IMG/VR virus record: IMGVR_UViG_3300032241_000435
Coordinates: 1-53,123 of that record
From: a virus
Lineage: Duplodnaviria > Caudoviricetes
Length of the DNA: 53,123 nt
Direction: 5' to 3' (one strand)
The position numbers and the translations under genes were made by a program. The notes under the pieces were generated by a model. That model ran no database searches and was not told where the DNA came from. It saw only the letters and a list, made by a program, of their open reading frames with translations. Below, one piece after another: positions 1,278-50,608 of this stretch; position 1 is the stretch's first letter, and the number at the start of each line of letters is the position of its first letter.

Positions 1278-1677
1278 AATTGAGGTAAGGATCAGGGGAT
1301 TCGTCATCGTTGTGGTGACCCTGATATTTGCTTTTATAACATTTGCGCTATTGTATTCAGTCACGTTTGTGACTCAGCCCATCAAGGCTATGGCTCCTAT
1401 CGACCAAGCCTATACCAAGATGCTGAACGACATCGTTCTTCTCATTGTGGGCGGTATTGGGGGTATTATGACCAAAGGCTTGACTAATGAAGCTACTAAT
1501 ATGATGAACGCAGCTAAGGCCAACAAGGATGCATATGTGGCTCCTCCTCCCCCTCCTCCTGCTCCTATTATTGTTTCTGCTCCTAATTGGACTCCACCTC
1601 CTCCGCCCGTCTCGTCTCCTACATTGGAGGATGAAGAAACTAGAGAAAGAATGGCAAGAGCAAGGGCAGGACTATGA
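1219..1677 (+). CDS. two-TM membrane protein with Pro-rich tail (holin candidate)
   Basis: TTG start with GGAG at 1208-1211; two hydrophobic segments; lies in lysis region. Confidence 0.65.
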   Translation: MKELLLALLNNPSQRLTADEIEVRIRGFVIVVVTLIFAFITFALLYSVTFVTQPIKAMAPIDQAYTKMLNDIVLLIVGGIGGIMTKGLTNEATNMMNAAKANKDAYVAPPPPPPAPIIVSAPNWTPPPPPVSSPTLEDEETRERMARARAGL

Positions 1678-2145
1678 ATTTGTTGCAAATGGATGGTGTT
1701 GTTTTTTTGCTTTTAAATAAGCCTCATTTGCTTTTTCTTCAGTTAAAAAATATTCACAAAATATTGTTTTTCTATTTAACATTAATTTTGCGCAAAATCT
1801 TTTTAGTCTTTTGTCAAAATGAACACCAAGTTTTTTCCTATTTTGACCATTTTCAGAAGCATTTGCTTCTCTTAAATTGCAAATTCTATTGTCATTTGGA
1901 ATGCAATTTATGTGATCGATTGATAATTTTGGGAAAACACCATAAACATAAAGCCAAGCTAATCTGTGAGCCTTATAAGATTTTCCATGTATACCAATTT
2001 CCAAATAACCCTGAATCATTGATCCAGCAGTTTTGCCAATTTTTGCACGTTGTGAAAGTCTTTTTTTCCAAACAAAAATTCCAGTATTGGAGTCGTAATC
2101 CAATATTGAATGTAAATATTCTTGAGTTAAAATGAAATTAGTCAT
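1672..2145 (-). mobile_element. free-standing HNH homing endonuclease with AP2-like C-terminus
   Basis: AHRLAWLYVYG...IDHINCIPNDNRICNLRE HNH motif; GGAGG RBS at 2152-2156; antisense to late operon; AT-rich. Confidence 0.88.
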
Positions 2146-2807: not shown

Positions 2808-2878
2808 ACGACAAAATTACCATTATTTTGATGTGCCTGGTTGTGGCAGTTTTATTTATGATATTGGTGCAAGTATGA
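2804..2878 (+). CDS. 24-aa single-TM peptide, not in ORF track
   Basis: MNDKITIILMCLVVAVLFMILVQV; ATGA overlaps with Rz stop and endolysin start; GAGGGGG upstream. Confidence 0.65.
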   Translation: MNDKITIILMCLVVAVLFMILVQV

Positions 2879-3468
2879 TTACTGTTGACCAACTTCACCG
2901 TTTGGGAATAGGCTCTCAATGGGAAGGCCCATTAAATGCAACTTTTGCCAAGTTTGGGATTGATGATGATAACAAGCAAGCTGCGTTTATTGGACAGTGT
3001 GCACACGAGTGCAACCATTTCAAAACACTGGAAGAAAACCTCAATTACTCCGCAGCAGGACTTCAAGAGCATTTTCACACCCACTTTCAACCAAGCGAAT
3101 ACGAGCTTTTTGCCCACAAACCTGAAAAAATTGCCAACAGAATTTACGCCAATCGAGGCGGCAATCGAAATGAGGCGTCAGAAGATGGGTATCGCTTCCA
3201 CGGGCGAGGCTGTATCCAGCTCACATTTCATGATAACTACTGGCACTTTGGTCAAGCCGTGGGTCAGGATTTTGTAGCTCATCCTGAATTAGTAGCAACC
3301 CCAATGTATGCTTGTATGAGTGCTGGCTGGTTCTGGGCAACTCACGGTTGTAGTCCCTTAGCAGAAGCTAAAAACTGGCAAATGCTGACTAAGCGCATCA
3401 ATGGCGGTACATTTGGAATCCAAGAACGTATTGCTTTAACTGAACAAGCCTTGACTCTGATGGGCTAA
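2875..3468 (+). CDS. endolysin, glycoside hydrolase family 19
   Basis: AAFIGQCAHE, ENLNYS, GRGCIQLT, SAGWFW, TKRINGG motifs; start at ATG 2875. Confidence 0.92.
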   Translation: MITVDQLHRLGIGSQWEGPLNATFAKFGIDDDNKQAAFIGQCAHECNHFKTLEENLNYSAAGLQEHFHTHFQPSEYELFAHKPEKIANRIYANRGGNRNEASEDGYRFHGRGCIQLTFHDNYWHFGQAVGQDFVAHPELVATPMYACMSAGWFWATHGCSPLAEAKNWQMLTKRINGGTFGIQERIALTEQALTLMG

Positions 3469-8249: not shown

Positions 8250-8675
8250 ATGAAAAAAATTGTATACGGAGAAGATGCTAGACTGCTTGCTTGGCTTGAA
8301 CCGAGGCTCGAAGGTCACTTTTCTCCAACGAATGCAACAGCTTTTGGGGTTGAAGATGATAACGAAATCATCGGAGTTGTAGCATTTAATTACTATTCAG
8401 GAACATCTGTCCACATGAATGTCGCTGCGTTACCTGGTCGTTATTGGTTAACAAAAGAATTTTTGTGGCGCAGCTTTGCTTATCCTTTTCTTCAGTTAAA
8501 GTGTAATCGAGTTACCGCATTGGTACGTGAAGACAATATTCATGCTCAAAAGTTTGACGAAAATCTTGGATTTGTCCGAGAAGGTTTACTTAGAAAAGAA
8601 AGTAAAGACGGACAAAATATGATTGTGTACGGTATGCTTAAAGAAGAATGCCGTTTTTTGGAGATTAAAGTATGA
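8250..8675 (+). CDS. GNAT-fold acetyltransferase (virion morphogenesis associated)
   Basis: RVTALVREDNIHAQKFDENLGFVREGLLRK...YGMLKEEC; directly upstream of ejection genes. Confidence 0.85.
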   Translation: MKKIVYGEDARLLAWLEPRLEGHFSPTNATAFGVEDDNEIIGVVAFNYYSGTSVHMNVAALPGRYWLTKEFLWRSFAYPFLQLKCNRVTALVREDNIHAQKFDENLGFVREGLLRKESKDGQNMIVYGMLKEECRFLEIKV

Positions 8676-11330: not shown

Positions 11331-14300
11331 ATGCCAATACTTGAAGGTTTTAAACCTGTTGGTGAGTTATCAGGTACAACTCCAACGATTGTTCCAAATG
11401 ACAGCAATGCGCTTATGTCTGGTTTGTCGTCAGGCACAAGTAATCTTGAAGGATTGCTGTACGATGCTTTAGGTGCAGGTGCTGATGCCGCTAAACTTAA
11501 AGAACTTAAAGAGTGGGCCAACAAACAAGCTAAGCAAAAAGAATATGAATCTTTTGTAGCTAGTAGACCTGAACTTAGTAATATTGAAGATCAGTCTTTA
11601 GGTTCTTTACCTTCTTATGCTGCTTATCAACTTGGACAACAATTACCCCAAGTAGGCGGAGCTATGCTCTTAGGTGCAGCTATTCCTGAAGCTGTTGTTC
11701 CTGCTGCTGTATCTAGACTAGGTGCTGTTGCTCCTGATTTTCTCAGTGGCGGAGCTTTAAAAGCTGGTGCTGATTTTGCTACTAGACGTGCTGCTTTAGA
11801 AACGGGAACGGCTCTTGGTAAAAATGCCATGGGTTTGGGAGCGTTCAACGAAGTCCAATCTATTGGTTCTTTATACAATAGCGCCAAAGAAAATCCTGAT
11901 GAGGAAAATGCAGGACTTAAATCCTTAGCATTATCTCCAGCTCATGCCGCACTTGAAACTATTCCAGAAGTTCTTTTGGGTAAAGTCATTGGCGGTGAAC
12001 ATGGATTTACTGGAAACTTTATTCAGCGAGGTTTAAAAGCAGGTGCGTCTCAAGCTACTACGGGAGCTTTATCTGAATTAGGTCAAGGTGAACTAGAGAT
12101 GGCTGTTGGTAAGCCATTAACAGATGAAGAAAAATTTAGCCAAAGATTAAATTCTGGCGTTGCTGGTGGGCTTGTAGAAGGTATTTTGGGCGGCGCTGGC
12201 GGTATGTTGCGTAGTGGTAAAGCTGTACCTTTGATGAAAGGTACAAACGAGCAACTAACTACATCTGAATTAGACCAAGGCAATGGTCAAGGTGGCGGTA
12301 GACAGCCTGATACTGGAGACTCAGTACAACAAGCTTTAAACGATAATCTTGATCTTGGGTCTACTCCAACGGCTAGAGTTCAGTTACCAACGCTTAGCGC
12401 AACTCAGCAAGGGACTACAGATGTAGCTCAACAAGCGGCTGCAGCAGAACAACAGCAACAACAAGCTCAAGCAATTCAACAGCAACAACAAGCGGCTGCA
12501 CAAGCTCAAGCTGACCTAAAAGCTCGTCAAGATCAAGCACTCCAAACTTTTGGTGTGGCGAATAGTGTTGATGACACCAGAGGTAACTTGGTTGGTAAAC
12601 CCATCTTATCTAAGAGTACTTTAAGTGTTGTAGCTAATGCGTTGGAAAAAGAACACAGCGCTATGCCTGAAGATCAAAGAACAATTGCTAGCGCAATCAT
12701 TGCCGCTAATAATGCTTTGGCTACACCTGAAAAAACAAACCCATTGGTAAGCTTTAGCTTTAATGTGGCTGATCCCGCTAAAACAGCTGCGTCTGTACAG
12801 AATGCTTTCAAAGCGATTGCTAATGTAGCTACCAAATACCAAATCCATGATGCGACATCTGCTGAGGAAGCTGCTGCCCGTTTGGATGAACAATCTAAAT
12901 CTGCCAAAGCTGGGGAGTTAGATAAGATCAATGCTATCCATCAAGCCTTGACAGGCAAGGATACTTCTGGTTTCATTGCTAGTCAACAATCTAAAGGAGA
13001 GAAAAATGGAAACAAACAACCCCAACGTCAAGTGGAAGCAACTCCCAGGGTGGGAACAGTACCAGTCCAAGGAGGATCAGCTCAAGCAGCAAATGGAGGA
13101 GGGAATGTGGGGGGCGGAAACGTTCAACCCATCGGAGCAGGAAGTGTCCCTCAAGAACAGGCTGGACAGCAAACTGGACGAGCACCAGCAGAAGGAATAC
13201 GGAATAGCCCCAGTGGAGATGTGCTCGGATTGCACAATAACAATGCTGGGAATGGGACTGGGCAGGGGCAGATAAATGGACAAGCGACCCCAACATCTGG
13301 TGAGTCCACACAACCCAGCGTTCAAACCGTGGCTAAGCCAACTGTGGCAGAAGGCCAAGGAGCGAGAGTCTATGACCCAACAATCTCCTACTACGCAACA
13401 GACCTTAGCCACATCAAACCAGCCAGACGAGAAGAAATCAGAAATGATTTAATTCGAGCTATCCTTGCTCCAGATGTAGAACGAGCTGGTGTGATGACCC
13501 TTGCACAAAGGGTTGACATGGTAACCATGGCTTTGATCGATGGTGAGCCACAAGAAGACATTGCCAAACAACTTGGCGTGTCTAAAGCTGCAGTTCAAAA
13601 ACAATTGGAACGTCTAGGTATTATTGTTAAGCCAAGGCTAACACCTGCTCAACAAAGCGAAATCAATTCTATTGAACAACGTTTAGGCATTCCAGCAGGA
13701 ACACGCAATACGACTAAAGACCCATTTGCGGTGTCTAAAGCAATTACTACGCAACTTCCAGTTGAAGAAACTGCTGATTTAGTCCATCGTCTTGATGGCT
13801 TATATAAGTCTGCTTCCAAAGACTATGGTATTGAAACGCCTAAAGACGGTAAAGCGTTTGACGATATGTTGCTTGACGCAGGTGAAGCCTATCGTTCTGC
13901 TGAATTCCCTGACGGTATTGGTGCTGGAGAAATTGTTTACTTGTATAGCCACGACAAGAACGTTACCACTGAGCAATCTTTGGCTGACGAACTAGAGAAT
14001 GGTAGTGTATCAGGTGATCGTAGCAAGTTGCTTGCTGAAGAAATGCGTGGTCGTGGTGAAGGCAATGAAGGCCAGTCTATGGGAGTTATCTCTCAAGCTG
14101 GTGGTAGCCAAGGTGCAGTAGGGTCATTGAATAAAGAGTTCTTTAACCGCATCGAAAAGCTCACCAACGAGATGGAAGCATTGCCTCCAAAAGACCCACG
14201 CAGAACAGTGATCGAAGAAAAGATCAAAGAAGAGTGGGCTAAGTATGGTAAGAAACAAGCTGCTCTTGCCGAACAAGGTGAGTTAGAGGTCAACCAAACT

Positions 14301-17300
14301 GAAGAAGGTGAGGAAGAAAATGCCGTTCAAGAGCAAAGCGCAAATGAGGGAAATGTTCGCAAATCAACCCGAGGTGGCAAAAAAGTGGGCGAAGCTAACG
14401 CCCAATCCGAAAAACCTGCCCGAAAAAGTGAAGCCAAAACCAGCGTCAAAAAAGAAACCGTAACTAAGTACCCTGTAACTATCGAAGGCAAACCAGCCAC
14501 GGTTTCAATTATTCGTATGGTGGATGACCCAACAAAAGTTGATGCGGTCAGAATCCATGTGAACGGTGAAAAACTACCCAGCAGCTTAGGCAAACAAGGT
14601 GTAGTATCTGATGAGCAAATGCTCAAGAACTTAACGGACATAAACGTTATTGATGAAGCTGAGCCGAAAGAGGTAAAGTCTGACAATCAGTTGGCAGGCG
14701 AAGCATGGGATAAAGTTGCTGCTGAGTATCCTGAAGCTCCAAAATGGGCTGACTTAACCAAAGAACAACAGAAAACGTTTACGGATTTCGGCCCTAAAAA
14801 TTGGACTGCCCAAGATGTTCAAGGTGAGTTAGTTAAACTTGCAAAAGAAAAACAAACCCAACAGCAAGTTGAAAAACAAGAAACCGAAACCAAAGCCGTT
14901 GAAGTTGCTGAAGAAGTTTTACAGCCACATTTAGATAAATTAACCGAAGGCCAAACTACTCGTTTAGAAAACTTCTATAAAGCTAAACGTGGTTCATCTG
15001 AATTTATTGCTAAAGTTCGTGATGATGTTGTCACACTAGCAAACAAAGGTGCTGCGGCAATCAATGCTGCCATTAGAGATATTATTAGCTCGCTTGCCAA
15101 AGGTGTTTTGGCAGTATCTGTGGTGTTTAATCCTCAGTTCATGAGTGCTCCTAATTTTGTATTGCACCCAACAAAAACAATTACCACTACAACCGTAAGG
15201 CAAATCAAAGCTTCTATTCCTCGTGGAGCAGAATCTTTATCTGAGAGTGGTAAAACTGCTTTTGCAACATTATTTCCAGCATTACAAGATGACCTAAAAG
15301 CAAATAATAAATTTTTTGTTTTGGCTGATAAACCGACTTCAACAGTTTTTGTGTTTAATCCAAATGGAACTTTATTTGCCAAATCAAAAGTGCTTCTTGG
15401 TAAGGCTTATGGAGATTTTTATGTTGGCTCAACTGATTTTGTTAAAAACCGCATAACTCCTGCTGGTCTGTTTAAAATTAATGCTGAAAAAGGCAGTGAA
15501 GTTTACGATGGTAAAACTATCTATACGATTGGTAATGTAAAAGAAGGTTGGACTGCTGCTATTTTCCATACCGTTTACACCAAAGAAGCTGATGGCCCTG
15601 CTCGTGTAAATGCTTTAACCAAAGAAGGTGCTGGAGATTCAAGATACTCTCATGGTTGTATTAATGGTAACCCTGAGTTTATGAATAAACTTGCCAATAG
15701 TGGCATGATGAACGAAGCTCATATGTTTGTGGTTCCTGATAACGCTAAGTTATTGGATTCTTTTATTGCAAATAAAGTTTCAAATGAAGATTTAACAAGA
15801 GAAACTATTGAGCCAAAAACTGTTACTGAAACCAAGACAACTACTGTTCCTAATGCAACTTCTGTTGCTACCAATCAAATTGTTGGTAAAGAAGAAAACG
15901 TATTCAAACCAACTAAAAATTTAAAATTTGGTGAAAATACTACCAAGGGTGTAAAGAATCCTTATTCAGTTGCAGAACTCACTGATGAGATTAAAACATT
16001 TATTCGTGCAGATATTCTTGGACGCAAACTTAAAATTGTTGAGAATGTTCAACAATTACTTTTATCTCCAGATCGAGAAGAACAAATCGTTGGCGCTGCT
16101 ATGGGTGTCAATGGCGCTTATGGTGTAGCCACAAACGGCACAGCTTACTTGATTGCTAACCGTATCGAAAAAGGTACAGGTCGTGCCAAATTTATGCACG
16201 AAGTTGGAGCCCATTTGGGTTTAGAAAAACTTCTTCCAACGGCTATCTACAACAAACTTACAGAACAAATCGCAAGTTGGGCTAAGTCTGACAATGGTTC
16301 TGTTGAATCCACGTTAGCAGTTAAAGCTGCTGAACGTGTTATGAATGCCAATACACCTAAAGAAGATCAGCGTTCTGAACTGCTGGCTTACTTTATAGAA
16401 GAAGCAATGCAAGCAGGTATTGATCCAACTGCGGCAGGTAAAGAATCAGCAGCTTTATCGTCTTGGTTCCGTACATTGTGGGCGGCATTTAAAAATGCTG
16501 TTCGTAAACTTGGATTTAAAGAATCTAATCTAACTGCTCAAGATGTAGTTAACCTTGCTTTTGGTGCAGCTCGTTTAGAAATTACTGGCACATGGCATGG
16601 TACTGCTGCTAGCTTCCGTAAGTTTAACCACAAGTTTATGGGTTCTGGTGAAGGAGCTCAAGCTTATGGTTGGGGTACGTATCTTGCACAACGTGTGGGT
16701 ATTGCTCATGGTTATTGGAAAGCTGATGTGCAAAGGAAGACTTCGCCTGTTGAAGTTTTGTACAACGGTAAAGATATTGACCATATTGCTACAGACTTAT
16801 TTTTCAAAAGCAATCTTACTAAGGATGAAAAGGCTTTACTGAATATAGTTACAGAGCTTAGTTTGCAAGCAGGTGTTGGCAATACTGACTCAATTCGCAC
16901 CGTTCACTTAAATCTTGCTAAAAAGTTAAATAAAACAGCAGAAGAAAAATATGCTTCGGAATGGCTTGATAAACATTATTCTGATTTTTCTACAAAAAGT
17001 ACAGCCCCTCTTGGTAGTTTATTTCGTGTAGATGTTGGCGTTGGTCAAAATGATTTATTGGATTGGGATGAGCCCTTATCTAAACAACCTAATGTTTTAA
17101 AAGCAATTAAAAACAATCTTTCTTCTGATGTCATTAACACGCTAGAAGAAGAGTACAACGATGATTTAGATAATCTTACTGGAGAAGACTTTTATCGTGG
17201 ACTGCAAGCTTTAGAAAAAAGAGATGGATTAATAAGCGATCAGTTTAAAGATGTTGAAGATTACAACAAACGTTTAGGCAATAAAGGCGCAAAACAAATT

Positions 17301-20300
17301 GTGTCTACTTATTTAGATGAAATAGCTAAAGTCCCTGGGATTAAATTTTTAGATGCTATGAGTCGGGGCGCAGGCCCTGAAAAGAAACTTGTTTTCCATG
17401 GAGTTAAATATACATCAGATGAATTAAGACATCTAGTAAAAGAAGCTCGAGAGGGAAAAGGAACTCTTACTCTTGACCAAGTAACAAACTTGCGCCATGT
17501 ACTGCATGTTGGTATTAATGCAGCATTAGAAGAATACAAAAAGAAAATCCAAAGGACAATTGATTCTTCTGTTCAAATATACAAAGAATCAAGTGAGAGA
17601 TTTAAAGTACCGTATAACGAAGCTGAGGCATTGGCGAGGGCTAAAGCAATAGCTGAAAAAACTTACGAAGCTCAACAACTGAAATGGCTAGAGGATAACC
17701 TTAAAAATATTGATGTTATCTCCAAAGAAAAAGTTCGCACAAAAAATTTAGTTGTCTTTAATGACAAAAATATCCAGCGTGTTGGATCAGAAGTTGCTGC
17801 TGATAGACAGCGCATGAAGTTTGGTATTGACCAAGCTACTGTTGATAAAAATATCAACAAGCTACCTCCTAGGATTCAAAAGCCTACACGAGTCATCACA
17901 GACTCATTGTTCAAGCAAGTCATCTCTAAGATGGGTGCAGCCAAAAACTTGATCTTGAAGTCTGCCATCACAGAAGATGTGGTGAAGTACGCACAGAAAT
18001 ATATGCGTTCCGCAGACAAATACTTGGCAGCTCAGTATGCTCGTCAAGCCATGGTGAACAAGTTCAACAACAAAGTTGATAAGATTCTTACAGCTTATGA
18101 AAAACTCGACAAAGCGATCCAAGGTGAAGGCGCAGGTAGCGTCAATGAATTTATCGCTGATTCAGTGCTTAGTGGTAAGTGGGGTTATTACCCTGGTTCT
18201 AAATTTGTAGGCACTAAGTTGTTTGAAGTTGATCCAGATATGGAGAAACGTTTCAAAGCGTTTGAGAAGTATGAAGGCGCACAAGAGTTAATTAAGTCAG
18301 TATTTGAGCATGGTCACGATGTATTGATGTCTAAACAATCTGCTGCAACTAAAGCGGTTGATGCTGAGTTTGCTGAGCGTGAGCGTCAAGCATTCTTTGA
18401 CCCAGATATTTTGGATCAGTTACGTGCTGAGAAAAAGGCGGCTATTGCCAAGATATCTTTGGGTGATCCCACTGTACCCTACGCACCCTTGAGCCGCTAT
18501 GGTGATTACGTTGTGATCGCTAAGTCTGCTGAGTACCAAGCCTACGAAGATATGCTGAGTGGCGAACGTGGTATGGCTACTGGTAACAACGATATCGTTG
18601 GGGATGCCAACAGAGCTCGCATTTGGATGGATGAAAATCAATCCAACTCAACTCACTACGTTGTTCAGTTTGCTGAAACTTTAGGCGAGGCCAATAAGAT
18701 TGCTCAAGACCTTGGCGCTACTGGCCTATACGATAACGTTCAGTCGGGTGAAAAAGAAACTCAAGCTAGCTATGCTGGTGGTAGCGATATCCATTTGGCT
18801 GTTACTAGACTACGTAACTTATTCAAACGTTCCACTGAAAACAAGAGTACTCCTGAAGCCAAAGCTTTGGACAAAATGATCGGCGACTTGTACTTGTTGG
18901 CTACTGCTGAGAACAGTGCTCGTAAGTCTGAGATTGAACGTAAAAAGATATCAGGCTTTGATAAGAACATGATGCGTAACCTAGCCACAAGTGGTAAGGC
19001 AAATGCTCATTTCTTGGCTAGCATGGAACACAATGACGCAATCAATGAAGCCATTGATGAGATGCGCCAACAAGCTAAAGCCAATCGTGCTGAAGCCATG
19101 CCTTACTTCAATGAGCTGATGGAGCGCAATTCGGCTTCCATGAACTATAAGAGCCCAAGCATCATTGCCAAGTCTTTGAATCAGGCTAACCATATCTATT
19201 CTTTGACTTTTAGCCCTGCGTTCTATCTGCAACAGATGGTGCAAACTGCGGCTATTTCTTTGCCATACCTTGCTGGTCGTTTGGGTTATACCAATGCTGC
19301 CAAGCATATCGGTCGTGCATACCAAGATGTGAGCAAAATTAAGAATGCATTAGATTTCAAGAACGTCAATGACCATCTTGATTTCAGCAAAGCTCCTGCT
19401 GATGTGCGTGCAATGCTTGATCGTTTGGTAGGCATGGGCAAGATTGATATCGGCATGGATTCTGAGTTCAAAGCCAAGGGTTACGATCAGACTTTGTTTG
19501 ATAAAGTCATGTACAAAATGCAAGGTATTACCAACCGCATCGAAACTGTCAACCGTTCTGTAGCTGCCATAGCCGCTTATCGTGGTTATCTTGAACGCTA
19601 CGGTATGGATAAAGTGGAAGGTGCAACCCAGTACGCTGCAGACGTTGTGTCCGATACTCATGGTTCATACGATGGATTCAATACTCCTCGTGTACTCCAA
19701 AGCACGTTTGGTAAGGTAGCGCTCCAGTTCAGACGTTTCCAAATCATCCAATTGTCTATGATGGCAAAGATGATCCATACTGCTTTCATCGAGAACTCAG
19801 CTTCCAAAGAAGAAAAACTTGTAGCCAAGAAAACACTTGCGTTTATCTGTGCTCAGATGGCGGTAGTGGCTGGCGGCTTGGGTGTGCCATTTGTTTCTCA
19901 GTTGGCATTCTTGATCCTGAAGATGTTCGGTTCACCTGATGAGCCTGATGATGTTGAGTACAAGCTACGCAAATTGATTGGCGATCCAGTTGCGGCTGAG
20001 TTGTTGTTGCGTGGTGTATCGGGTGCTGTCGGCTGGGAATCTTTCGGTAAGAAGATATCCATGGAAAACGTTGCGTCTCCATTCGGTGGGTATGTAGTTC
20101 CTGATCTTACTAATCGTAAAGGTGTAGAAAAGACTGCTCTAGCGATTCTTGGCCCTTCGCTCAGCTTGACTGAGAAGTTGGCTGATGCTTTCCAATATAC
20201 AGCACAAGGCAATTACTACAAAGGACTTGAGGCTGCTTTGCCAAATGGTTTATCAAACTCTCTTAAAGGTGCTCGTTACCTTACAGAAGGTATGACCATG

Positions 20301-20690
20301 AGGAACGGTGACCTTGTAATGAAGCCTGACGATATTGGTATGCTTGGTGCTGCATCTCAAATGTTTGGCCTGCCAACAAATGCGATCACTCATCAACAGT
20401 TTGCTCAGAAAGTTAAAGCTGAATACGATCAGCAATATCAGGAAAGGTTGACTGAAATTAAAGGTGAATATGTGAAAGCCTATCGTGCCAATGATTCTAA
20501 AGGTATGTCTAATGCTAGAGAGGAATTTAGGCAGATGGAAGAGTCACGTATGGCTAACGGATACAAACGCCAACCATTGTCTGAGTTGTTAAAAGCACCA
20601 ATGGCGGCAATGAAGCGTGAACGTTCTGTAGTCAATGGGGTAGAATCTACAAAGCAAAATAAACAATTCTTAGCCACGATGGGTGCATGA
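11331..20690 (+). CDS. giant polyvalent ejection protein (HTH, L,D-transpeptidase, metallopeptidase, ART-like, PLxRFG, LPD-type C-terminus)
   Basis: QEDIAKQLGVSKAAV; H...SHGCIN; HEVGAH; WHGT...GSGEGAQAYGWGTY...NLVVF; PLSRYG. Confidence 0.85.
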   Translation: MPILEGFKPVGELSGTTPTIVPNDSNALMSGLSSGTSNLEGLLYDALGAGADAAKLKELKEWANKQAKQKEYESFVASRPELSNIEDQSLGSLPSYAAYQLGQQLPQVGGAMLLGAAIPEAVVPAAVSRLGAVAPDFLSGGALKAGADFATRRAALETGTALGKNAMGLGAFNEVQSIGSLYNSAKENPDEENAGLKSLALSPAHAALETIPEVLLGKVIGGEHGFTGNFIQRGLKAGASQATTGALSELGQGELEMAVGKPLTDEEKFSQRLNSGVAGGLVEGILGGAGGMLRSGKAVPLMKGTNEQLTTSELDQGNGQGGGRQPDTGDSVQQALNDNLDLGSTPTARVQLPTLSATQQGTTDVAQQAAAAEQQQQQAQAIQQQQQAAAQAQADLKARQDQALQTFGVANSVDDTRGNLVGKPILSKSTLSVVANALEKEHSAMPEDQRTIASAIIAANNALATPEKTNPLVSFSFNVADPAKTAASVQNAFKAIANVATKYQIHDATSAEEAAARLDEQSKSAKAGELDKINAIHQALTGKDTSGFIASQQSKGEKNGNKQPQRQVEATPRVGTVPVQGGSAQAANGGGNVGGGNVQPIGAGSVPQEQAGQQTGRAPAEGIRNSPSGDVLGLHNNNAGNGTGQGQINGQATPTSGESTQPSVQTVAKPTVAEGQGARVYDPTISYYATDLSHIKPARREEIRNDLIRAILAPDVERAGVMTLAQRVDMVTMALIDGEPQEDIAKQLGVSKAAVQKQLERLGIIVKPRLTPAQQSEINSIEQRLGIPAGTRNTTKDPFAVSKAITTQLPVEETADLVHRLDGLYKSASKDYGIETPKDGKAFDDMLLDAGEAYRSAEFPDGIGAGEIVYLYSHDKNVTTEQSLADELENGSVSGDRSKLLAEEMRGRGEGNEGQSMGVISQAGGSQGAVGSLNKEFFNRIEKLTNEMEALPPKDPRRTVIEEKIKEEWAKYGKKQAALAEQGELEVNQTEEGEEENAVQEQSANEGNVRKSTRGGKKVGEANAQSEKPARKSEAKTSVKKETVTKYPVTIEGKPATVSIIRMVDDPTKVDAVRIHVNGEKLPSSLGKQGVVSDEQMLKNLTDINVIDEAEPKEVKSDNQLAGEAWDKVAAEYPEAPKWADLTKEQQKTFTDFGPKNWTAQDVQGELVKLAKEKQTQQQVEKQETETKAVEVAEEVLQPHLDKLTEGQTTRLENFYKAKRGSSEFIAKVRDDVVTLANKGAAAINAAIRDIISSLAKGVLAVSVVFNPQFMSAPNFVLHPTKTITTTTVRQIKASIPRGAESLSESGKTAFATLFPALQDDLKANNKFFVLADKPTSTVFVFNPNGTLFAKSKVLLGKAYGDFYVGSTDFVKNRITPAGLFKINAEKGSEVYDGKTIYTIGNVKEGWTAAIFHTVYTKEADGPARVNALTKEGAGDSRYSHGCINGNPEFMNKLANSGMMNEAHMFVVPDNAKLLDSFIANKVSNEDLTRETIEPKTVTETKTTTVPNATSVATNQIVGKEENVFKPTKNLKFGENTTKGVKNPYSVAELTDEIKTFIRADILGRKLKIVENVQQLLLSPDREEQIVGAAMGVNGAYGVATNGTAYLIANRIEKGTGRAKFMHEVGAHLGLEKLLPTAIYNKLTEQIASWAKSDNGSVESTLAVKAAERVMNANTPKEDQRSELLAYFIEEAMQAGIDPTAAGKESAALSSWFRTLWAAFKNAVRKLGFKESNLTAQDVVNLAFGAARLEITGTWHGTAASFRKFNHKFMGSGEGAQAYGWGTYLAQRVGIAHGYWKADVQRKTSPVEVLYNGKDIDHIATDLFFKSNLTKDEKALLNIVTELSLQAGVGNTDSIRTVHLNLAKKLNKTAEEKYASEWLDKHYSDFSTKSTAPLGSLFRVDVGVGQNDLLDWDEPLSKQPNVLKAIKNNLSSDVINTLEEEYNDDLDNLTGEDFYRGLQALEKRDGLISDQFKDVEDYNKRLGNKGAKQIVSTYLDEIAKVPGIKFLDAMSRGAGPEKKLVFHGVKYTSDELRHLVKEAREGKGTLTLDQVTNLRHVLHVGINAALEEYKKKIQRTIDSSVQIYKESSERFKVPYNEAEALARAKAIAEKTYEAQQLKWLEDNLKNIDVISKEKVRTKNLVVFNDKNIQRVGSEVAADRQRMKFGIDQATVDKNINKLPPRIQKPTRVITDSLFKQVISKMGAAKNLILKSAITEDVVKYAQKYMRSADKYLAAQYARQAMVNKFNNKVDKILTAYEKLDKAIQGEGAGSVNEFIADSVLSGKWGYYPGSKFVGTKLFEVDPDMEKRFKAFEKYEGAQELIKSVFEHGHDVLMSKQSAATKAVDAEFAERERQAFFDPDILDQLRAEKKAAIAKISLGDPTVPYAPLSRYGDYVVIAKSAEYQAYEDMLSGERGMATGNNDIVGDANRARIWMDENQSNSTHYVVQFAETLGEANKIAQDLGATGLYDNVQSGEKETQASYAGGSDIHLAVTRLRNLFKRSTENKSTPEAKALDKMIGDLYLLATAENSARKSEIERKKISGFDKNMMRNLATSGKANAHFLASMEHNDAINEAIDEMRQQAKANRAEAMPYFNELMERNSASMNYKSPSIIAKSLNQANHIYSLTFSPAFYLQQMVQTAAISLPYLAGRLGYTNAAKHIGRAYQDVSKIKNALDFKNVNDHLDFSKAPADVRAMLDRLVGMGKIDIGMDSEFKAKGYDQTLFDKVMYKMQGITNRIETVNRSVAAIAAYRGYLERYGMDKVEGATQYAADVVSDTHGSYDGFNTPRVLQSTFGKVALQFRRFQIIQLSMMAKMIHTAFIENSASKEEKLVAKKTLAFICAQMAVVAGGLGVPFVSQLAFLILKMFGSPDEPDDVEYKLRKLIGDPVAAELLLRGVSGAVGWESFGKKISMENVASPFGGYVVPDLTNRKGVEKTALAILGPSLSLTEKLADAFQYTAQGNYYKGLEAALPNGLSNSLKGARYLTEGMTMRNGDLVMKPDDIGMLGAASQMFGLPTNAITHQQFAQKVKAEYDQQYQERLTEIKGEYVKAYRANDSKGMSNAREEFRQMEESRMANGYKRQPLSELLKAPMAAMKRERSVVNGVESTKQNKQFLATMGA
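13006..13275 (+). CDS. nested +1-frame ORF (89 aa) within giant gene
   Basis: AAGGAGAGAAAA-ATG; METNNPNVKWKQLPGWEQYQ... Confidence 0.5.
   Translation: METNNPNVKWKQLPGWEQYQSKEDQLKQQMEEGMWGAETFNPSEQEVSLKNRLDSKLDEHQQKEYGIAPVEMCSDCTITMLGMGLGRGR
13276..13452 (+). CDS. nested +1-frame ORF (58 aa) abutting the previous one
   Basis: TAA-ATG junction; MDKRPQHLVSPHNPAFKPWLSQLWQKAKERE... Confidence 0.4.
   Translation: MDKRPQHLVSPHNPAFKPWLSQLWQKAKERESMTQQSPTTQQTLATSNQPDEKKSEMI
14320..14463 (+). CDS. nested +1-frame basic microprotein, MPFKSKAQ-type (47 aa)
   Basis: AAGGTGAGGAAGAAA-ATG; MPFKSKAQMREMFANQPEVAKKWAKLTPNPKNLPEKVKPKPASKKKP. Confidence 0.72.
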   Translation: MPFKSKAQMREMFANQPEVAKKWAKLTPNPKNLPEKVKPKPASKKKP

Positions 20691-20935: not shown

Positions 20936-20966
20936 AAAATCCCCCAACACCGTGAAGCGTTGGGGG
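20934..20966 (-). terminator. intrinsic terminator between convergent operons
   Basis: CCCCCAAC/GTTGGGGG stem, T-tract on minus strand. Confidence 0.75.
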
Positions 20967-44130: not shown

Positions 44131-46266
44131 ATGCAATTAGGCTTGAACATTACGAATTCCGCAGCGCCCGACAGCATTATGACTGGCGGGATGGTAAGGA
44201 TTAAGTCTATCAAAGCCTTGCAAAGAGAAGAGAAAGCTCAAGCTGAAAAAGACAACAGCGATCCGATCGTTAGAAGTTTAGCTGGTTATGTCAAGACAAA
44301 GTGGACAGCAGCAATGCTGGCTAAGCAGCAGACAGCCGAGCAACAAATGTTGCAAAGCGTACGTCAACGCAGAGGCGAGTACGATCCCGATAAATTAGCA
44401 CAGTTGCGTGAGCAAGGAAGCTCAACGATCTACATGATGTTGACTTCAAATAAATGTCGTGCTGCTGTGAGCTGGCTGAAAGATACCTTATTGCAAGCAG
44501 CCGAGGATAAACCTTGGTCGATCGAGCCTAGTCCCATACCTGAGTTGCCACCTAACGAGGTTGAGGGTTTGATCCAACAAGCTGAAAAAGAAATTCAACA
44601 GCTGTACATGAACGGCACACCTCCTACAGATCAGCAGGTCAGAGAACGTTTGCTTGAGATGAAAGACATGGCGATGTCTCACATGAAAGACCTCGCACAA
44701 CGTACATGCGACCGCATGGAAGTAAAGATGGAAGACCAGTTGCAACAAGGCGGCTGGGAAAAAGCATTCTCTGAATTCCTAGAAGATTTAGTGACCTTCC
44801 CTGCGGCGATCATGAAAGGGCCTATCGTTCGCAAACGTCCCAGAATGAAATGGGTTCCAGATGGTAAAGGTGACTATGCACTTGATGTGCAAGATGAGCT
44901 GGTTCTCGAGTGGGAGCGTGTTGATCCATTTAACTTATACCCAGCTGCCGATTCGAGCTATATTGATGATGGATACTTAATCCAAAGGCATAAGCTTCAC
45001 AAGCAAGACTTGCAAGCGCTGATTGGCGTTGAAGGTTATAGCGATGGTGCTATCCGTGGTGTGTTAGATGATTACGGTCGCCAAGGTTTGCGTGACTGGA
45101 TTTATGTGGATATGAACAAGGCTGCGGCTGAGGGCAAGTCCACAATGGGCGTTCAGCAAAATCCATCAGAATTAATCGATGCGCTTCAGTTTTGGGGCAG
45201 TATTCATGGTCAGCTTCTGCTTGACTGGGGTATGAGCGAGGAAGAGATTCCTGATCCATTGCTCGATTACGATGTTGAAGTTTGGACAGTTGGAAACTGG
45301 GTTATTAAAGCAGTCTTGAATTCAGACCCCATGGGTCGTAAACCTTATTACAAAGCATCCTACGAAGAGGTTCCTGGCACTTTTTGGGGTAATTCAATAT
45401 GTGACCTAGCACGTGACACTCAAGACATCTGTAACGCTGCCGCCCGTTCTTTGGTCAATAACTTGTCCATCGCTTCTGGCCCTCAAGTCGTTTACAACAT
45501 TGATCGTTTGCCACAAGGCGAGAACTTGACCCAGATGTTCCCATGGAAAATTTGGCAAGTTACTTCTGACCCATTGGCAGGTTCAGCACCTCCTATGCAG
45601 TTCTTCCAGCCAGAGTCTCTTGCACAAGAGCTCATGGCGGTCTATGACAAGTTTTCTGTTCTGGCTGATGAGTACACAGGTATTCCTCGTTATATGACTG
45701 GGGATGGCGCTGCAGGAGGTGCAGGACGTACTGCTTCAGGTATGTCCATGCTCATGGGTAATGCTGGTAAATCTATCAAGCAAGTCGTATCGAATATCGA
45801 TAAGAATGTAACTCAGCCTTTGATCGATAGATTGTTTTTCTATAACATGAAGTACAGCGATGATCCCGATCTTAAAGGCGATGTCAATATTCGTGCTCAT
45901 GGCGCTGAAGCCATTATGCTCAAAGAGCAAGCTCAGCAACGTCAAGCTCAGTTCTTGCAGTTGGCTCTCCAAAGTCCGATTGTTCAACAAGTTGTCGGTA
46001 TGGACGGAATTGCAGAATTGCTCCGTCAGTCAGCTAAGAACCTTGAACTTAACCCTGATAGAATCGTTCCGCCTGTTGAAGTTATCAAGCAAAAGATGGC
46101 CCAACAGCAACAAGCACAAGCCATGGCTGCGATGCAAGCTGCGGCACAACAGAGTGGTCAGGCACAGGCGGGGGGAACCCCTCCTACCCCACAAAGCGGG
46201 GCTCAATTGATGAATGGAGCCCCAGTTACTAACACATTCGCTTCGCAAGAGGGAATAGCTAGTTGA
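44131..46266 (+). CDS. portal protein
   Basis: 711 aa after TerL; RTASGMSML; Gln-rich C-terminal barrel. Confidence 0.88.
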   Translation: MQLGLNITNSAAPDSIMTGGMVRIKSIKALQREEKAQAEKDNSDPIVRSLAGYVKTKWTAAMLAKQQTAEQQMLQSVRQRRGEYDPDKLAQLREQGSSTIYMMLTSNKCRAAVSWLKDTLLQAAEDKPWSIEPSPIPELPPNEVEGLIQQAEKEIQQLYMNGTPPTDQQVRERLLEMKDMAMSHMKDLAQRTCDRMEVKMEDQLQQGGWEKAFSEFLEDLVTFPAAIMKGPIVRKRPRMKWVPDGKGDYALDVQDELVLEWERVDPFNLYPAADSSYIDDGYLIQRHKLHKQDLQALIGVEGYSDGAIRGVLDDYGRQGLRDWIYVDMNKAAAEGKSTMGVQQNPSELIDALQFWGSIHGQLLLDWGMSEEEIPDPLLDYDVEVWTVGNWVIKAVLNSDPMGRKPYYKASYEEVPGTFWGNSICDLARDTQDICNAAARSLVNNLSIASGPQVVYNIDRLPQGENLTQMFPWKIWQVTSDPLAGSAPPMQFFQPESLAQELMAVYDKFSVLADEYTGIPRYMTGDGAAGGAGRTASGMSMLMGNAGKSIKQVVSNIDKNVTQPLIDRLFFYNMKYSDDPDLKGDVNIRAHGAEAIMLKEQAQQRQAQFLQLALQSPIVQQVVGMDGIAELLRQSAKNLELNPDRIVPPVEVIKQKMAQQQQAQAMAAMQAAAQQSGQAQAGGTPPTPQSGAQLMNGAPVTNTFASQEGIAS

Positions 46267-49268: not shown

Positions 49269-49952
49269 ATGGGAACAATTACCGCTGGAACCATTGTCAG
49301 TCAAGCTGCGACCCAGCTTACTGATATTGCTAATGTCCGTTGGACACAGGCGGAATTGCTTCAATGGTTGAATGCTGGCCTTCGTCAAATTGTGACGATA
49401 CAGCCTAATGCTACTTCAAAGCTAAGTGTTGTAACTTTAGTATCTGGCACAAGACAAACTATTCCTTCCGATGGCTGGATGTTGCTTCGTGTTCACAGAA
49501 ATATGGGTACAACTGGAACAACTCCAGGTCGGGCTATTCGTGTTGTTTCCCGTGAAATCCTAGATGCTTTTAATCCTTATTGGCATACCGATCCCGCTAC
49601 TTTAGAAGTCAAGAATTTTATCTATGACATTGAAGACCAAGCGGCATTTTATGTTTACCCACCCAATCTTGGTGGGCAACAGATTGAATTAAATTATTCA
49701 GAACAACCAACTGATTTGACATTAACTCAAGTCATACCAATTTTTGATGTTTTTGCTTCTGCATTGCTTGATTACATTATGTATAGAGCTTGCAGCAAAG
49801 ACGCAGAGTATGCACCAGGGCTTGCGCTTGCTCAAGCTTATTTGTCTACATTTACAGCCGCTATTGCAGCTAAAGACAAGTCAGAAAAAGAAGTTGCACC
49901 TGATAATGCTCTTAACGGTCGTAACCCAGCAGTTAAAGGAAGTGACACATGA
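49269..49952 (+). CDS. head-tail adaptor-like protein
   Basis: RWTQAELLQWLN, FYVYPP, ALLDYIMYRA.SKDAE; position. Confidence 0.7.
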   Translation: MGTITAGTIVSQAATQLTDIANVRWTQAELLQWLNAGLRQIVTIQPNATSKLSVVTLVSGTRQTIPSDGWMLLRVHRNMGTTGTTPGRAIRVVSREILDAFNPYWHTDPATLEVKNFIYDIEDQAAFYVYPPNLGGQQIELNYSEQPTDLTLTQVIPIFDVFASALLDYIMYRACSKDAEYAPGLALAQAYLSTFTAAIAAKDKSEKEVAPDNALNGRNPAVKGSDT

Positions 49953-50608
49953 GTTACGAAGTTTCGTATGATTTGTTTATGCCTGAGATCATGCCTTATT
50001 TGCCTGATGTGCCTGAACTCGTGGTTACGCAAGCTATCCGAAATGCCACCATTGAGTTTTGCCAAAAGACAAGATATCTCCAAGAAAACTTACCTTCAGT
50101 AACACCAATCTACAACATTGGTGTTTATGATTTAGGTTCTTATTTGGATGGCACATATACAATTGCTGATGTGATCGAAGCTTGGTATGGTGATGTTCTT
50201 TTGATCCCTAAATCAGTAGAACAACTTACAAAAATTTACAGGGCTAATGATTGGCAAAATATGTTGGGGCAACCTTACTATTTTTTTCGCCGTACAAATC
50301 ATGAGGTGACCATTGTGCCTAAACCACAATTCACTATGCCTCAAAGTCCAATGCAGTTCTTGGTAGCTAAAACGCCTACCAGAGCCTCTACAACAGTTGA
50401 TTATGCAATCTATGAGCATTTCCTAGAGCAGATATGTTTCGGCGCTCGTGCGAGGCTATACGGAACTCCTGGACAGCCTTATTATGATCCTAATGCGGCT
50501 CTCGACTATCGTAAACGTTTTTATGACGCCACAAACGAAGTTAGAGAGCGAGTAAACCGTAGTAATTCACGTGCTGCTGTCAATGTTGAATATCAGAGGT
50601 GGGTATGA
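49949..50608 (+). CDS. tail tubular / adaptor protein
   Basis: AIRNATIEFCQKT; position. Confidence 0.65.
   Translation: MSYEVSYDLFMPEIMPYLPDVPELVVTQAIRNATIEFCQKTRYLQENLPSVTPIYNIGVYDLGSYLDGTYTIADVIEAWYGDVLLIPKSVEQLTKIYRANDWQNMLGQPYYFFRRTNHEVTIVPKPQFTMPQSPMQFLVAKTPTRASTTVDYAIYEHFLEQICFGARARLYGTPGQPYYDPNAALDYRKRFYDATNEVRERVNRSNSRAAVNVEYQRWV

Follow-up and report, generated by a model that had tools for sequence, protein, structure and literature searches.

A predicted YkuD-type L,D-peptidase module inside a giant PLxRFG-type protein of a Caudoviricetes phage

The DNA considered here, referred to as the window, is the IMG/VR virus record IMGVR_UViG_3300032241_000435 (Duplodnaviria; Caudoviricetes), which is 53,123 bp long and has a CheckV completeness of 91%. 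It contains an open reading frame (ORF) of 3119 amino acids (aa) at 11331-20690 (+), encoding a giant protein, P0001, in the middle of which lies a module of the L,D-transpeptidase (YkuD) type. Based on the ORF list and the translation, positions 15081-15770 are in frame with this ORF. An earlier sequence-only reading had placed an L,D-transpeptidase domain of a virion ejection protein here. It indicated the right region, but the start that it gave, 15080, is out of frame, and a translation from that position contains many stops. The strings quoted in that reading were all recovered in frame with the ORF: FFVLADKPTSTVFVF from aa 1328 (nt 15312), TPAGLF from aa 1376, IFHTVY from aa 1411, which contains His1413 (nt 15567-15569), and SRYSHGCIN from aa 1437, which contains Cys1443 (nt 15657-15659). 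Only two cysteines, Cys1443 and C2840, occur in the 3119 aa of P0001.

Fold and catalytic residues of the module

The assignment of the module to the L,D-transpeptidase (YkuD) fold was supported by profile matching, structure prediction and structure searches. The Pfam family YkuD (PF03734) was matched above its cut-off of 23.4 bits, with 24.0 bits for the whole protein, 29.5 bits for the module alone and 30.4 bits in a six-frame scan; an NCBIfam scan returned no family for the module or for its bacterial homologues. In sequence searches of the PDB, with the single sequence and with a profile, real L,D-transpeptidases (Ldts) appeared at E 0.36-1.4, together with repeat-protein noise (designed 'Bagel' propellers, NHL repeats) that arises because the strand pair 'aDKp..vfvFn.dG' is mimicked. 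Because of this noise, we based the fold assignment on the structure searches. An AlphaFold2 model (model 1) covering aa 1251-1490, built on a 24-row alignment, has a mean predicted local distance difference test score (pLDDT) of 86.4, with the core above 90. When it was searched against the PDB by Foldseek, an L,D-transpeptidase-fold protein was found at every listed rank down to 50, the best match had an E value of 8e-6, and 63 matches had E <= 1e-3. In the predicted structure, aa 1328-1470 is a YkuD beta-sandwich; the structure settles the question, for which the sequence alone is thin. The module does not appear closer in sequence or structure to DpaA than to the cross-linking Ldts, and Z differences of 3 do not discriminate between reactions.

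Conservation was analyzed in an alignment of the module with its 150 best representatives (151 rows). Among filled rows, His1413 is kept in 150/150, with relatives down to about 25% identity, and Cys1443, Gly1442 and Asn1445 are each kept in 148/148; Arg1425, Thr1376, Gly1379, Lys1334 and Gly1361 are invariant too, and Asp1333 is present in 146/147. The conserved core residues are DKP (1333-1335), GD (1361-1362), TPAG (1376-1379), S-x-G-C-I-N (1440-1445) and Pro1469. The nucleophile loop, (S/T)-x-G-C-h, reads S1440-H-G-C1443-I-N in P0001, with Ser at position 1440 in 144 rows and Thr in 4, and it aligns with the SxGC cysteine of E. coli LdtA, LdtB and DpaA and of LdtMt1. It had been suggested from the sequence that an SHGC motif is present here with its His and Cys intact. 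The cysteine is indeed a family feature, but the histidine of SHGC, His1441, is not a conserved residue: the residues listed for its column in the 151 rows include F (85), Y (39), H (11), W (7), A (2) and a gap (3). This variation corresponds to the known range, as E. coli LdtA has SQGC and DpaA has SIGC, and LdtMt1 has the identical SHGCIN. Because His1441 is variable and His1413 is invariant, the conserved, presumably catalytic pair is His1413/Cys1443. The catalytic role of His1413 is presumed from its invariance and from its position in the model, where it ends the strand before the loop. The fold and the conservation exclude a chance motif, and the invariant catalytic residues exclude a decayed relic.

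The block common to the relatives comprises roughly 300 aa, with BLASTP blocks beginning at aa 1191-1194, and the alignment of its upstream helical region contains the invariant residues L16, Y28, D44 and G52. The YkuD domain is preceded by the hydrophobic segment AIRDIISSLAKGVLAVSVVFNP (aa 1247-1268), which has a Kyte-Doolittle value of 1.5-1.56 over 19 residues. The 12-aa hydropathy maximum of this segment is at least 1.62 in 130/130 rows containing it and at least 1.8 in 120 of them, and N1267 is kept in 130/134 rows. A second model (model 2, aa 1189-1490, pLDDT 85.6), which adds 62 conserved upstream residues, has three helices at residues 11-60 with pLDDT 87-97. The pLDDT of the hydrophobic helix increases from about 55 in model 1 to about 91 (block 61-70) in model 2, and the linker behind it stays disordered. 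These models suggest that, at least while the protein is stored, the hydrophobic helix is probably packed within a phage-specific helical subdomain.

This hydrophobic stretch had been described as a relic signal peptide. Its position agrees with that proposal, being the same as the position of the N-terminal signal-like segment in bacterial homologues, but its sequence does not: when a hidden Markov model (HMM) of the phage segment was compared with the N-termini of 74 bacterial homologues, 0/74 scored above the best reversed control, and sequence homology to the bacterial signal segments was dropped on the basis of this test. The phmmer alignments extend to the hydrophobic segment in 4/74 bacterial homologues, and the helix at aa 1305-1324 lies within several of them (start at query residues 32-55). 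A derivation of the hydrophobic helix from a signal peptide is plausible.

Carrier protein, genome context and spread of the module

P0001 combines several unrelated domains in one long late-gene polypeptide, namely the YkuD module, a PLxRFG tail and two sub-threshold matches. The PLxRFG domain (aa 2438-3098) matches NCBIfam NF032893 with E 1e-86 and 291.9 bits against a cut-off of 100, and the PHROGs found on aa 2382-3102 are phrog_10089 ('DarB-like antirestriction') and phrog_11358. With the tail region as query, tblastn matched 71 phage records, including Serratia phage Parlo, Klebsiella phages LASTA and SopranoGao, Ochrobactrum phage POI1126, Vibrio phages and many Pseudomonas phages; the genes are labelled as PLxRFG protein, as DarB-like or as 'structural protein'. 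Relatives of the YkuD module carry LPD38, ART-PolyVal, GNAT, ParB_N, DNA methylase and SNF2 helicase domains, which mark the 'polyvalent proteins' of Iyer et al. 2017. In P0001, Pfam detected neither LPD38 nor LPD39, though both are present in relatives, and no methylase or helicase at E <= 1; these occur in the giants of Parlo, LASTA and POI1126 and in the relative P0097. The PHROG label 'DarB-like' on P0001 is explained by the shared tail only, and a true DarB of the P1 type was rejected, as the pair of adenine methylase and SF2 helicase is absent. The sequence-only reading had named T7 gp16 as an example of podovirus ejection proteins. Membership of the carrier in the T7 gp16 family was also rejected, since the defining SLT (lytic transglycosylase) domain is missing, and P0001 is instead a PLxRFG polyvalent protein of the DarB-like, Bcep22-Parlo kind.

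Several other stretches of P0001 were recorded. A Sigma-70 region-4-like helix-turn-helix at aa 725-765 (13503-13625) scores 24.2 bits against a cut-off of 25.7 and recurs in the relatives P0061 and P0012, and a weak ART-PolyVal match at aa ~1755-1800 (~16590-16740) scores 16.8 bits against a cut-off of 31.2; P0020, P0099 and P0105 have a clear ART-PolyVal domain right after the YkuD block. Hydropathy in P0001 is highest, up to 2.03, in a stretch inside the PLxRFG domain (aa 2834-2868; 19830-19934), which holds C2840 and may form a membrane hairpin. A zinc peptidase near aa ~1615-1625 (16170-16190) was considered and rejected: 'FMHEVGAHLG' has the form HExxxH, not HExxH, and has no Pfam support.

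As for the fate of the protein, a homologue in phage Epa33 is annotated as 'structural protein'. For phi24B gp47, a polyvalent protein of 2811 aa with LPD5, LPD1, LPD38 and a MuF-C metallopeptidase domain, a preprint reports detection in virions by proteomics, and its authors propose a role as ejection protein. By analogy with these homologues, and from the position of its gene, P0001 would be packed in the virion and ejected.

In this podophage, the portal and two adaptors are SU10-like, and the lysis proteins include a GH19 endolysin and an Rz-like spanin; taken together, these point to a Gram-negative host. Judged by capsid and portal, the cultured phages closest to it are Rhizobium phages, with 38-43% identity. 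No large gene follows the giant gene in the late/structural operon, where it is placed after the tail-fibre and virion-protein genes and before the terminator. The order acetyltransferase, two ORFs and giant gene is the same in the podophage Parlo; the acetyltransferase is a GNAT acyl-CoA N-acyltransferase gene within the structural operon (8250-8675; phrog_4470, E 1.6e-43), syntenic with the Parlo acetyltransferase gene. The lysis cassette consists of the spanin gene (2190-2807) and the endolysin gene (2833-3468), with no holin in the scans run. Two adjacent SU10 adaptor paralogues (49269-50608; E 1e-31 and 4e-8) lie downstream of the portal gene (44131-46266), and near-coextensive ORFs of about 155 aa each were found on opposite strands at 1672-2145 (-) and 1674-2135 (+). 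The features of the giant gene and its surroundings are listed in Table 1.

Table 1. Coordinates in the window of the giant gene, its parts and the following terminator
Feature	Position	Strand	Basis
Giant ORF P0001, PLxRFG-type polyvalent protein	11331..20690	+	ORF list, translation, PHROG, NCBIfam NF032893, relatives' domains
Conserved helical region, aa 1189-1246, three predicted helices	14895..15068	+	BLASTP block starts, alignment, model
Hydrophobic helix AIRDIISSLAKGVLAVSVVFNP, aa 1247-1268	15069..15134	+	Hydropathy, conservation, models
Linker, aa 1269-1304, predicted disordered; conserved anchors P1297 and S1304	15135..15242	+	pLDDT 40-56; conservation counts
Helix before catalytic core, aa 1305-1324	15243..15302	+	DSSP H55-74 in model 1, pLDDT >90
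YkuD-fold catalytic core, aa 1328-1470	15312..15740	+	Pfam PF03734 at aa 1329-1456; invariant columns; Foldseek/VIA fold matches
Codon of His1413, presumed catalytic histidine	15567..15569	+	Kept in 150/150 filled rows; end of strand E157-164, model 1
Codon of Cys1443, presumed nucleophile	15657..15659	+	148/148 filled rows; aligned with SxGC Cys of Ldts
PLxRFG ('tail-700') C-terminal domain, aa 2438-3098	18642..20624	+	NCBIfam NF032893, hydropathy, tblastn
Strong hairpin terminator between late operon and convergent replication genes	20941..20966	-	11-pair stem with 7 G-C pairs, then T run

The module is widespread. An exhaustive HMMER search against 1.84 billion representatives gave at least 281 protein clusters at E <= 1e-3, most of them giants with a length of 2000-3800 aa; 124 matches remain with a limit of 1e-10 and 75 with a limit of 1e-30. 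Among the best 150 matches, 127 are proteins of at least 1500 aa with the module mid-protein. Relatives of the module were found on 121 IMG/VR contigs, many of which are 55-68 kb long. In 50,697 GenBank phage records, tblastn of the module gave no match at E <= 1e-3, though records near the window's own genome were possibly not covered, and blastn of the module against GenBank phages gave none either. In BFVD, an uncultured-phage protein named 'Large polyvalent protein associated domain-containing protein' was matched with E 1e-17 and TMq 0.72, and another match carries the automatic name 'L,D-TPase catalytic domain-containing protein [Podoviridae sp.]'.

Comparison of P0001 by BLASTP with the giants that have the most similar modules gave alignments at aa ~1190-1525 only, with 53% identity to P0003 and 41% to P0020. 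Among 150 module-bearing representatives, aa 1200-1500 are covered in 129-139, the tail in 47-61 and the N-terminus in at most 17; as these proteins were chosen for having the module, the counts bear on mosaicism and not on the universality of the module in PLxRFG giants. GenBank phage records with a match to the PLxRFG tail gave no tblastn match to the module. At the sequence level, these comparisons show that the giants are mosaics with shuffled modules. As side observations, P0003 and P0020 share nothing with P0001 outside the YkuD block in BLASTP, and the giants that have their N- and C-termini in common with P0001 have more distant YkuD blocks, at 40-45% (P0003, P0020, P0012, P0038 and P0061 were compared).

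Relatives with about 30% identity were also detected at no fewer than 408 loci in bacterial genomes, mostly of Burkholderiales, Caulobacter and Lysobacter. Small ORFs account for 74 of the 80 best-scoring loci, and 61 of these 74 have a hydrophobic signal-like N-terminus according to a simple heuristic. Pfam and NCBIfam gave no match for the two small bacterial members that were scanned, and some of the loci are annotated as L,D-transpeptidase. In an unrooted FastTree tree of 210 cores, 136 giant/viral rows are separated from 74 small bacterial rows with two changes, a pattern consistent with one or two capture events and a long radiation after them; an unrooted tree does not give the direction. 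By sequence, the module is related to small, signal-bearing proteobacterial proteins. These proteins themselves (L007:2812-3474, L061:2752-3462 and 72 more among the loci L002-L081) make up a widespread family of small YkuD-like proteins of about 210-300 aa, with the same long His-to-Cys spacing.

Possible action on the host wall and competing explanations

We consider it moderately probable that the module is a virion-delivered Cys/His L,D-peptidase that acts on host peptidoglycan at entry. Like its homologues, the giant protein would travel inside the capsid of a short-tailed phage and enter the Gram-negative envelope by ejection, either before the DNA or together with it. Once in the periplasm, His1413 would activate Cys1443 for attack on an L,D bond of the peptidoglycan stem at meso-diaminopimelate (mDAP), the candidate bonds being mDAP-D-Ala, the mDAP-mDAP 3-3 cross-link and the mDAP-Lys link to an outer-membrane protein (OMP), and the thioester intermediate would most likely be resolved by water. 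The wall, or its outer-membrane tether, could then be locally loosened for the passage of the ejected proteins and the DNA. In this role the YkuD module would replace the SLT, SleB-like or M15 wall hydrolase that is sited N-terminally in cultured relatives. We infer four of these elements: packaging and ejection, the periplasmic site, peptidoglycan as the substrate, and hydrolysis over cross-linking. Whether the activity would be that of an L,D-carboxypeptidase, a 3-3 endopeptidase or an Lpp/OMP amidase is not decided by the sequence. A lean to hydrolysis or exchange over cross-linking comes from the F or Y at the second-His position in most members, and also from Tlde1a, for which the data reported on the H129A substitution, at the position of the SHGC histidine, describe cross-linking as strongly cut and D-amino-acid exchange far less. 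The apparent periplasmic ancestry suggested by the small bacterial relatives was also counted in favor of peptidoglycan hydrolysis at entry.

The replacement of other wall hydrolases can be compared among giants. The sequence-only reading had seen no transglycosylase motif, and in agreement with this, Pfam detected no SLT, lysozyme or Hydrolase_2 domain in P0001, whether it was scanned whole or in five pieces. In 24 other ORFs of the window, no transglycosylase or lysozyme domain was detected except the GH19 endolysin beside the spanin in the lysis cassette, and no further structural ORF has a wall-hydrolase domain. Among six cultured PLxRFG giants scanned by Pfam, those of Parlo (aa 44-150) and LASTA (aa 46-141) have an N-terminal SLT domain, and that of POI1126 has Hydrolase_2 (SleB-like) and Peptidase_M15_3. 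According to the genome note on Parlo, its giant has an N-terminal transglycosylase and is linked to Bcep22-like DarB homologues. Since the syntenic giants of Parlo and LASTA carry SLT, there is comparative support for YkuD as a substitute for a transglycosylase. No domain of the SLT, Hydrolase_2 or M15 type was found at E <= 1e-3 in the 21 YkuD-bearing giants scanned by Pfam (P0001 and 13 + 7 relatives). The difference between 3/6 cultured and 0/21 YkuD-bearing giants has a Fisher p of 0.007, in a small sample and with relatedness ignored.

Several points weigh against the proposed peptidoglycan hydrolysis at entry. To our knowledge, YkuD enzymes cut neither glycan nor 4-3 cross-links, and their known reactions are not obviously mesh-opening. 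The Fisher comparison depends on 21 giants that were picked for the module, and the wall hydrolases of other giants are N-terminal whereas the YkuD module is central. The giants of Vibrio phage 1F273_PE002, Epa33 and douglas 12A4 have no Pfam wall hydrolase, and with 3/6 cultured giants in this state, such a domain may be dispensable. The Pfam margin is small, with E <= 0.01 reached by only 10/24 family members, and in the PDB profile search the best Ldt, 3zg4, had E 0.36 and the top rows were repeat-protein noise. An hhalign comparison with E. coli LdtB, LdtA and DpaA aligned 19 columns around SxGC only, with a probability of 7.8% and without covering the histidine. The His-to-Cys spacing is 28-30 in 147/148 rows with both residues and 34 in the remaining one (in P0001, His1413 lies 26 residues before Ser1440), compared with 18-21 for the canonical motif HXX14-17-(S/T)HGCh as given in PMC9638812; the long spacing is explained by a short inserted helix in model 1, which carries the invariant Arg1425. 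Furthermore, the domains of polyvalent proteins are described as mostly cytoplasmic in their presumed action (Iyer et al. 2017).

Four other types of explanation were weighed, and each was considered less probable than hydrolysis of host peptidoglycan by a delivered enzyme. Thioester chemistry tethers a YkuD enzyme to its substrate, and a transpeptidase or a trapped acyl-enzyme could in this way attach the giant protein, or a partner, covalently to mDAP in the sacculus and fix a trans-envelope conduit, comparable to the action of E. coli LdtA-C on Braun lipoprotein. The location of the module between two hydrophobic regions of a very long, possibly envelope-spanning protein would suit such an anchor. 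However, most members have F or Y, not His, before Gly-Cys, and for Tlde1a H129A it was cross-linking, not exchange, that was reported as strongly reduced; Z differences of 3 do not tell the reactions apart, no acceptor Lys or Gly motif was identified, and no precedent was found in the literature searched. We regard such an anchor as rather unlikely. The specific version, a harpoon in which a true transpeptidase bonds the giant conduit protein to host sacculus mDAP while the two membranes on either side are held by the conserved hydrophobic helix and by the hydrophobic hairpin of the PLxRFG domain, is slightly less likely still. About as improbable as the latter is an enzyme for host take-over or exclusion, which would act as a Tlde1-like L,D-carboxypeptidase, by D-amino-acid exchange or by DpaA-like Lpp release, and would stop growth, division or superinfection rather than clear a way for the DNA. 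Polyvalent proteins have been described as bundles of early-acting conflict effectors (Iyer et al. 2017), and BFVD contains small phage proteins named 'Tlde1 domain-containing' and 'L,D-carboxypeptidase/transpeptidase'. The negative association of the module with SLT, Hydrolase_2 and M15 in the giants fits substitution better, and one or few molecules per virion would be a small dose for a global effect.

The module might also have no wall substrate and be a self-processing peptidase or a purely structural part, for example in capsid maturation. For polyvalent proteins, processing by peptidase domains that they themselves contain has been proposed (Iyer et al. 2017). P0001 has no recognisable processing peptidase (HEVGAH is HExxxH, with no Pfam match), and its hydrophobic helix seems packed with the phage-specific upstream helices, both of which would be in keeping with such a function. 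On the other hand, the L,D specificity of the YkuD family is unfit for ribosomal peptides, all characterised YkuD-fold enzymes that were matched act on peptidoglycan or its protein links, and the closest relatives from cells are small proteins of a single domain, which have signal-like N-termini and nothing to process, so we hold this explanation to be improbable. The least likely explanation, to which we give very little weight, is a late-acting helper in lysis or assembly, in which the giant is not ejected and its YkuD module works on the wall from within as infection ends. The gene does lie in the late operon, with the lysis genes in the same direction of transcription. However, a GH19 endolysin and an Rz-like spanin are already encoded by the phage, the internal hydrophobic segment would need cleavage to serve as an N-terminal export signal, and the homologous giants are virion proteins (phi24B gp47; the Epa33 annotation).

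Significance and comparison with known systems

The entry-related virion wall enzymes that we know of are glycosidases or transglycosylases, or peptidases of the metallo-, NlpC- or CHAP-type. A large clade of ~50-70 kb phages bears a predicted YkuD-type cysteine L,D-peptidase in a presumably ejected giant protein, which points to an undescribed phage route through the bacterial wall. YkuD in phages is not wholly new, as PhaLP lists it in 10 phage lytic proteins and automatic UniProt names are already present. Known polyvalent-protein domains, as described by Iyer et al. 2017, include lysozyme, SpoIID-like, DD-peptidase and zeta-toxin-like kinase domains, and the terms YkuD, ErfK and transpeptidase have 0 occurrences each in the main text of that paper. 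In the literature searched, no description of YkuD in polyvalent or ejection proteins was found, although the comma in 'L,D-' may escape phrase matching. What would be new here, given delivery and activity of the kind known from analogous proteins, is a virion-delivered wall enzyme with new chemistry, a YkuD domain in an ejected giant.

If the module is active, it would provide a new chemistry for phage penetration, a handle on the periplasmic role of PLxRFG giants, and compact L,D-bond enzymes as tools or enzybiotic parts. Carbapenems and copper block YkuD enzymes, and with an active module they might interfere with infection by such phages. If the harpoon version were true, it would be the first virus that staples its DNA-delivery machine to peptidoglycan. 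In addition, small secreted proteins that form an unannotated YkuD-like family have been brought to light in Proteobacteria.

Compared with the transpeptidases Ldtfm, LdtMt1/2, E. coli LdtA-E and YcbB, the module has a spacing of 28-30 with the inserted Arg1425 helix and, in most members, F or Y before Gly-Cys; it has no LysM or peptidoglycan-binding partner and lies inside a giant phage protein instead of being secreted. It does not appear closer in sequence or structure to Csd6/Pgp2/Bd1075, DpaA/LdtF and Tlde1a than to true transpeptidases. Csd6/Pgp2 have an NTF2 domain that is missing from the module, and delivery would be by phage ejection, not by Sec or the type VI secretion system. The small Burkholderiales, Caulobacter and Lysobacter proteins share with it ~30% identity over the whole core, the motif [DN][SNK][RK][YIV]S[FYH]GC[IV]N, the long His-to-Cys spacing and a hydrophobic segment about 60-80 residues upstream, but they are free-standing proteins of 210-300 aa without the three upstream helices and lie on the other side of the tree.

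T7 gp16 resembles P0001 in its role as proposed here, that of a capsid-packed ejected protein dealing with the wall at DNA entry. It differs in that P0001 has no SLT domain and a predicted cysteine peptidase for the peptide stem in place of a glycan-strand lyase. None of the PHROG families of P0001 is annotated as internal core or ejection protein, and the two are set apart here by their domains. The giants of Parlo, LASTA, Bcep22-like phages, POI1126 and Epa33 are like P0001 in the PLxRFG tail, the place in the genome and the mosaic of optional domains. These cultured PLxRFG giants possess the DarB methylase-helicase pair and, as wall domain, SLT, Hydrolase_2 or M15 or none at all; P0001 lacks all of these and has the YkuD block instead.

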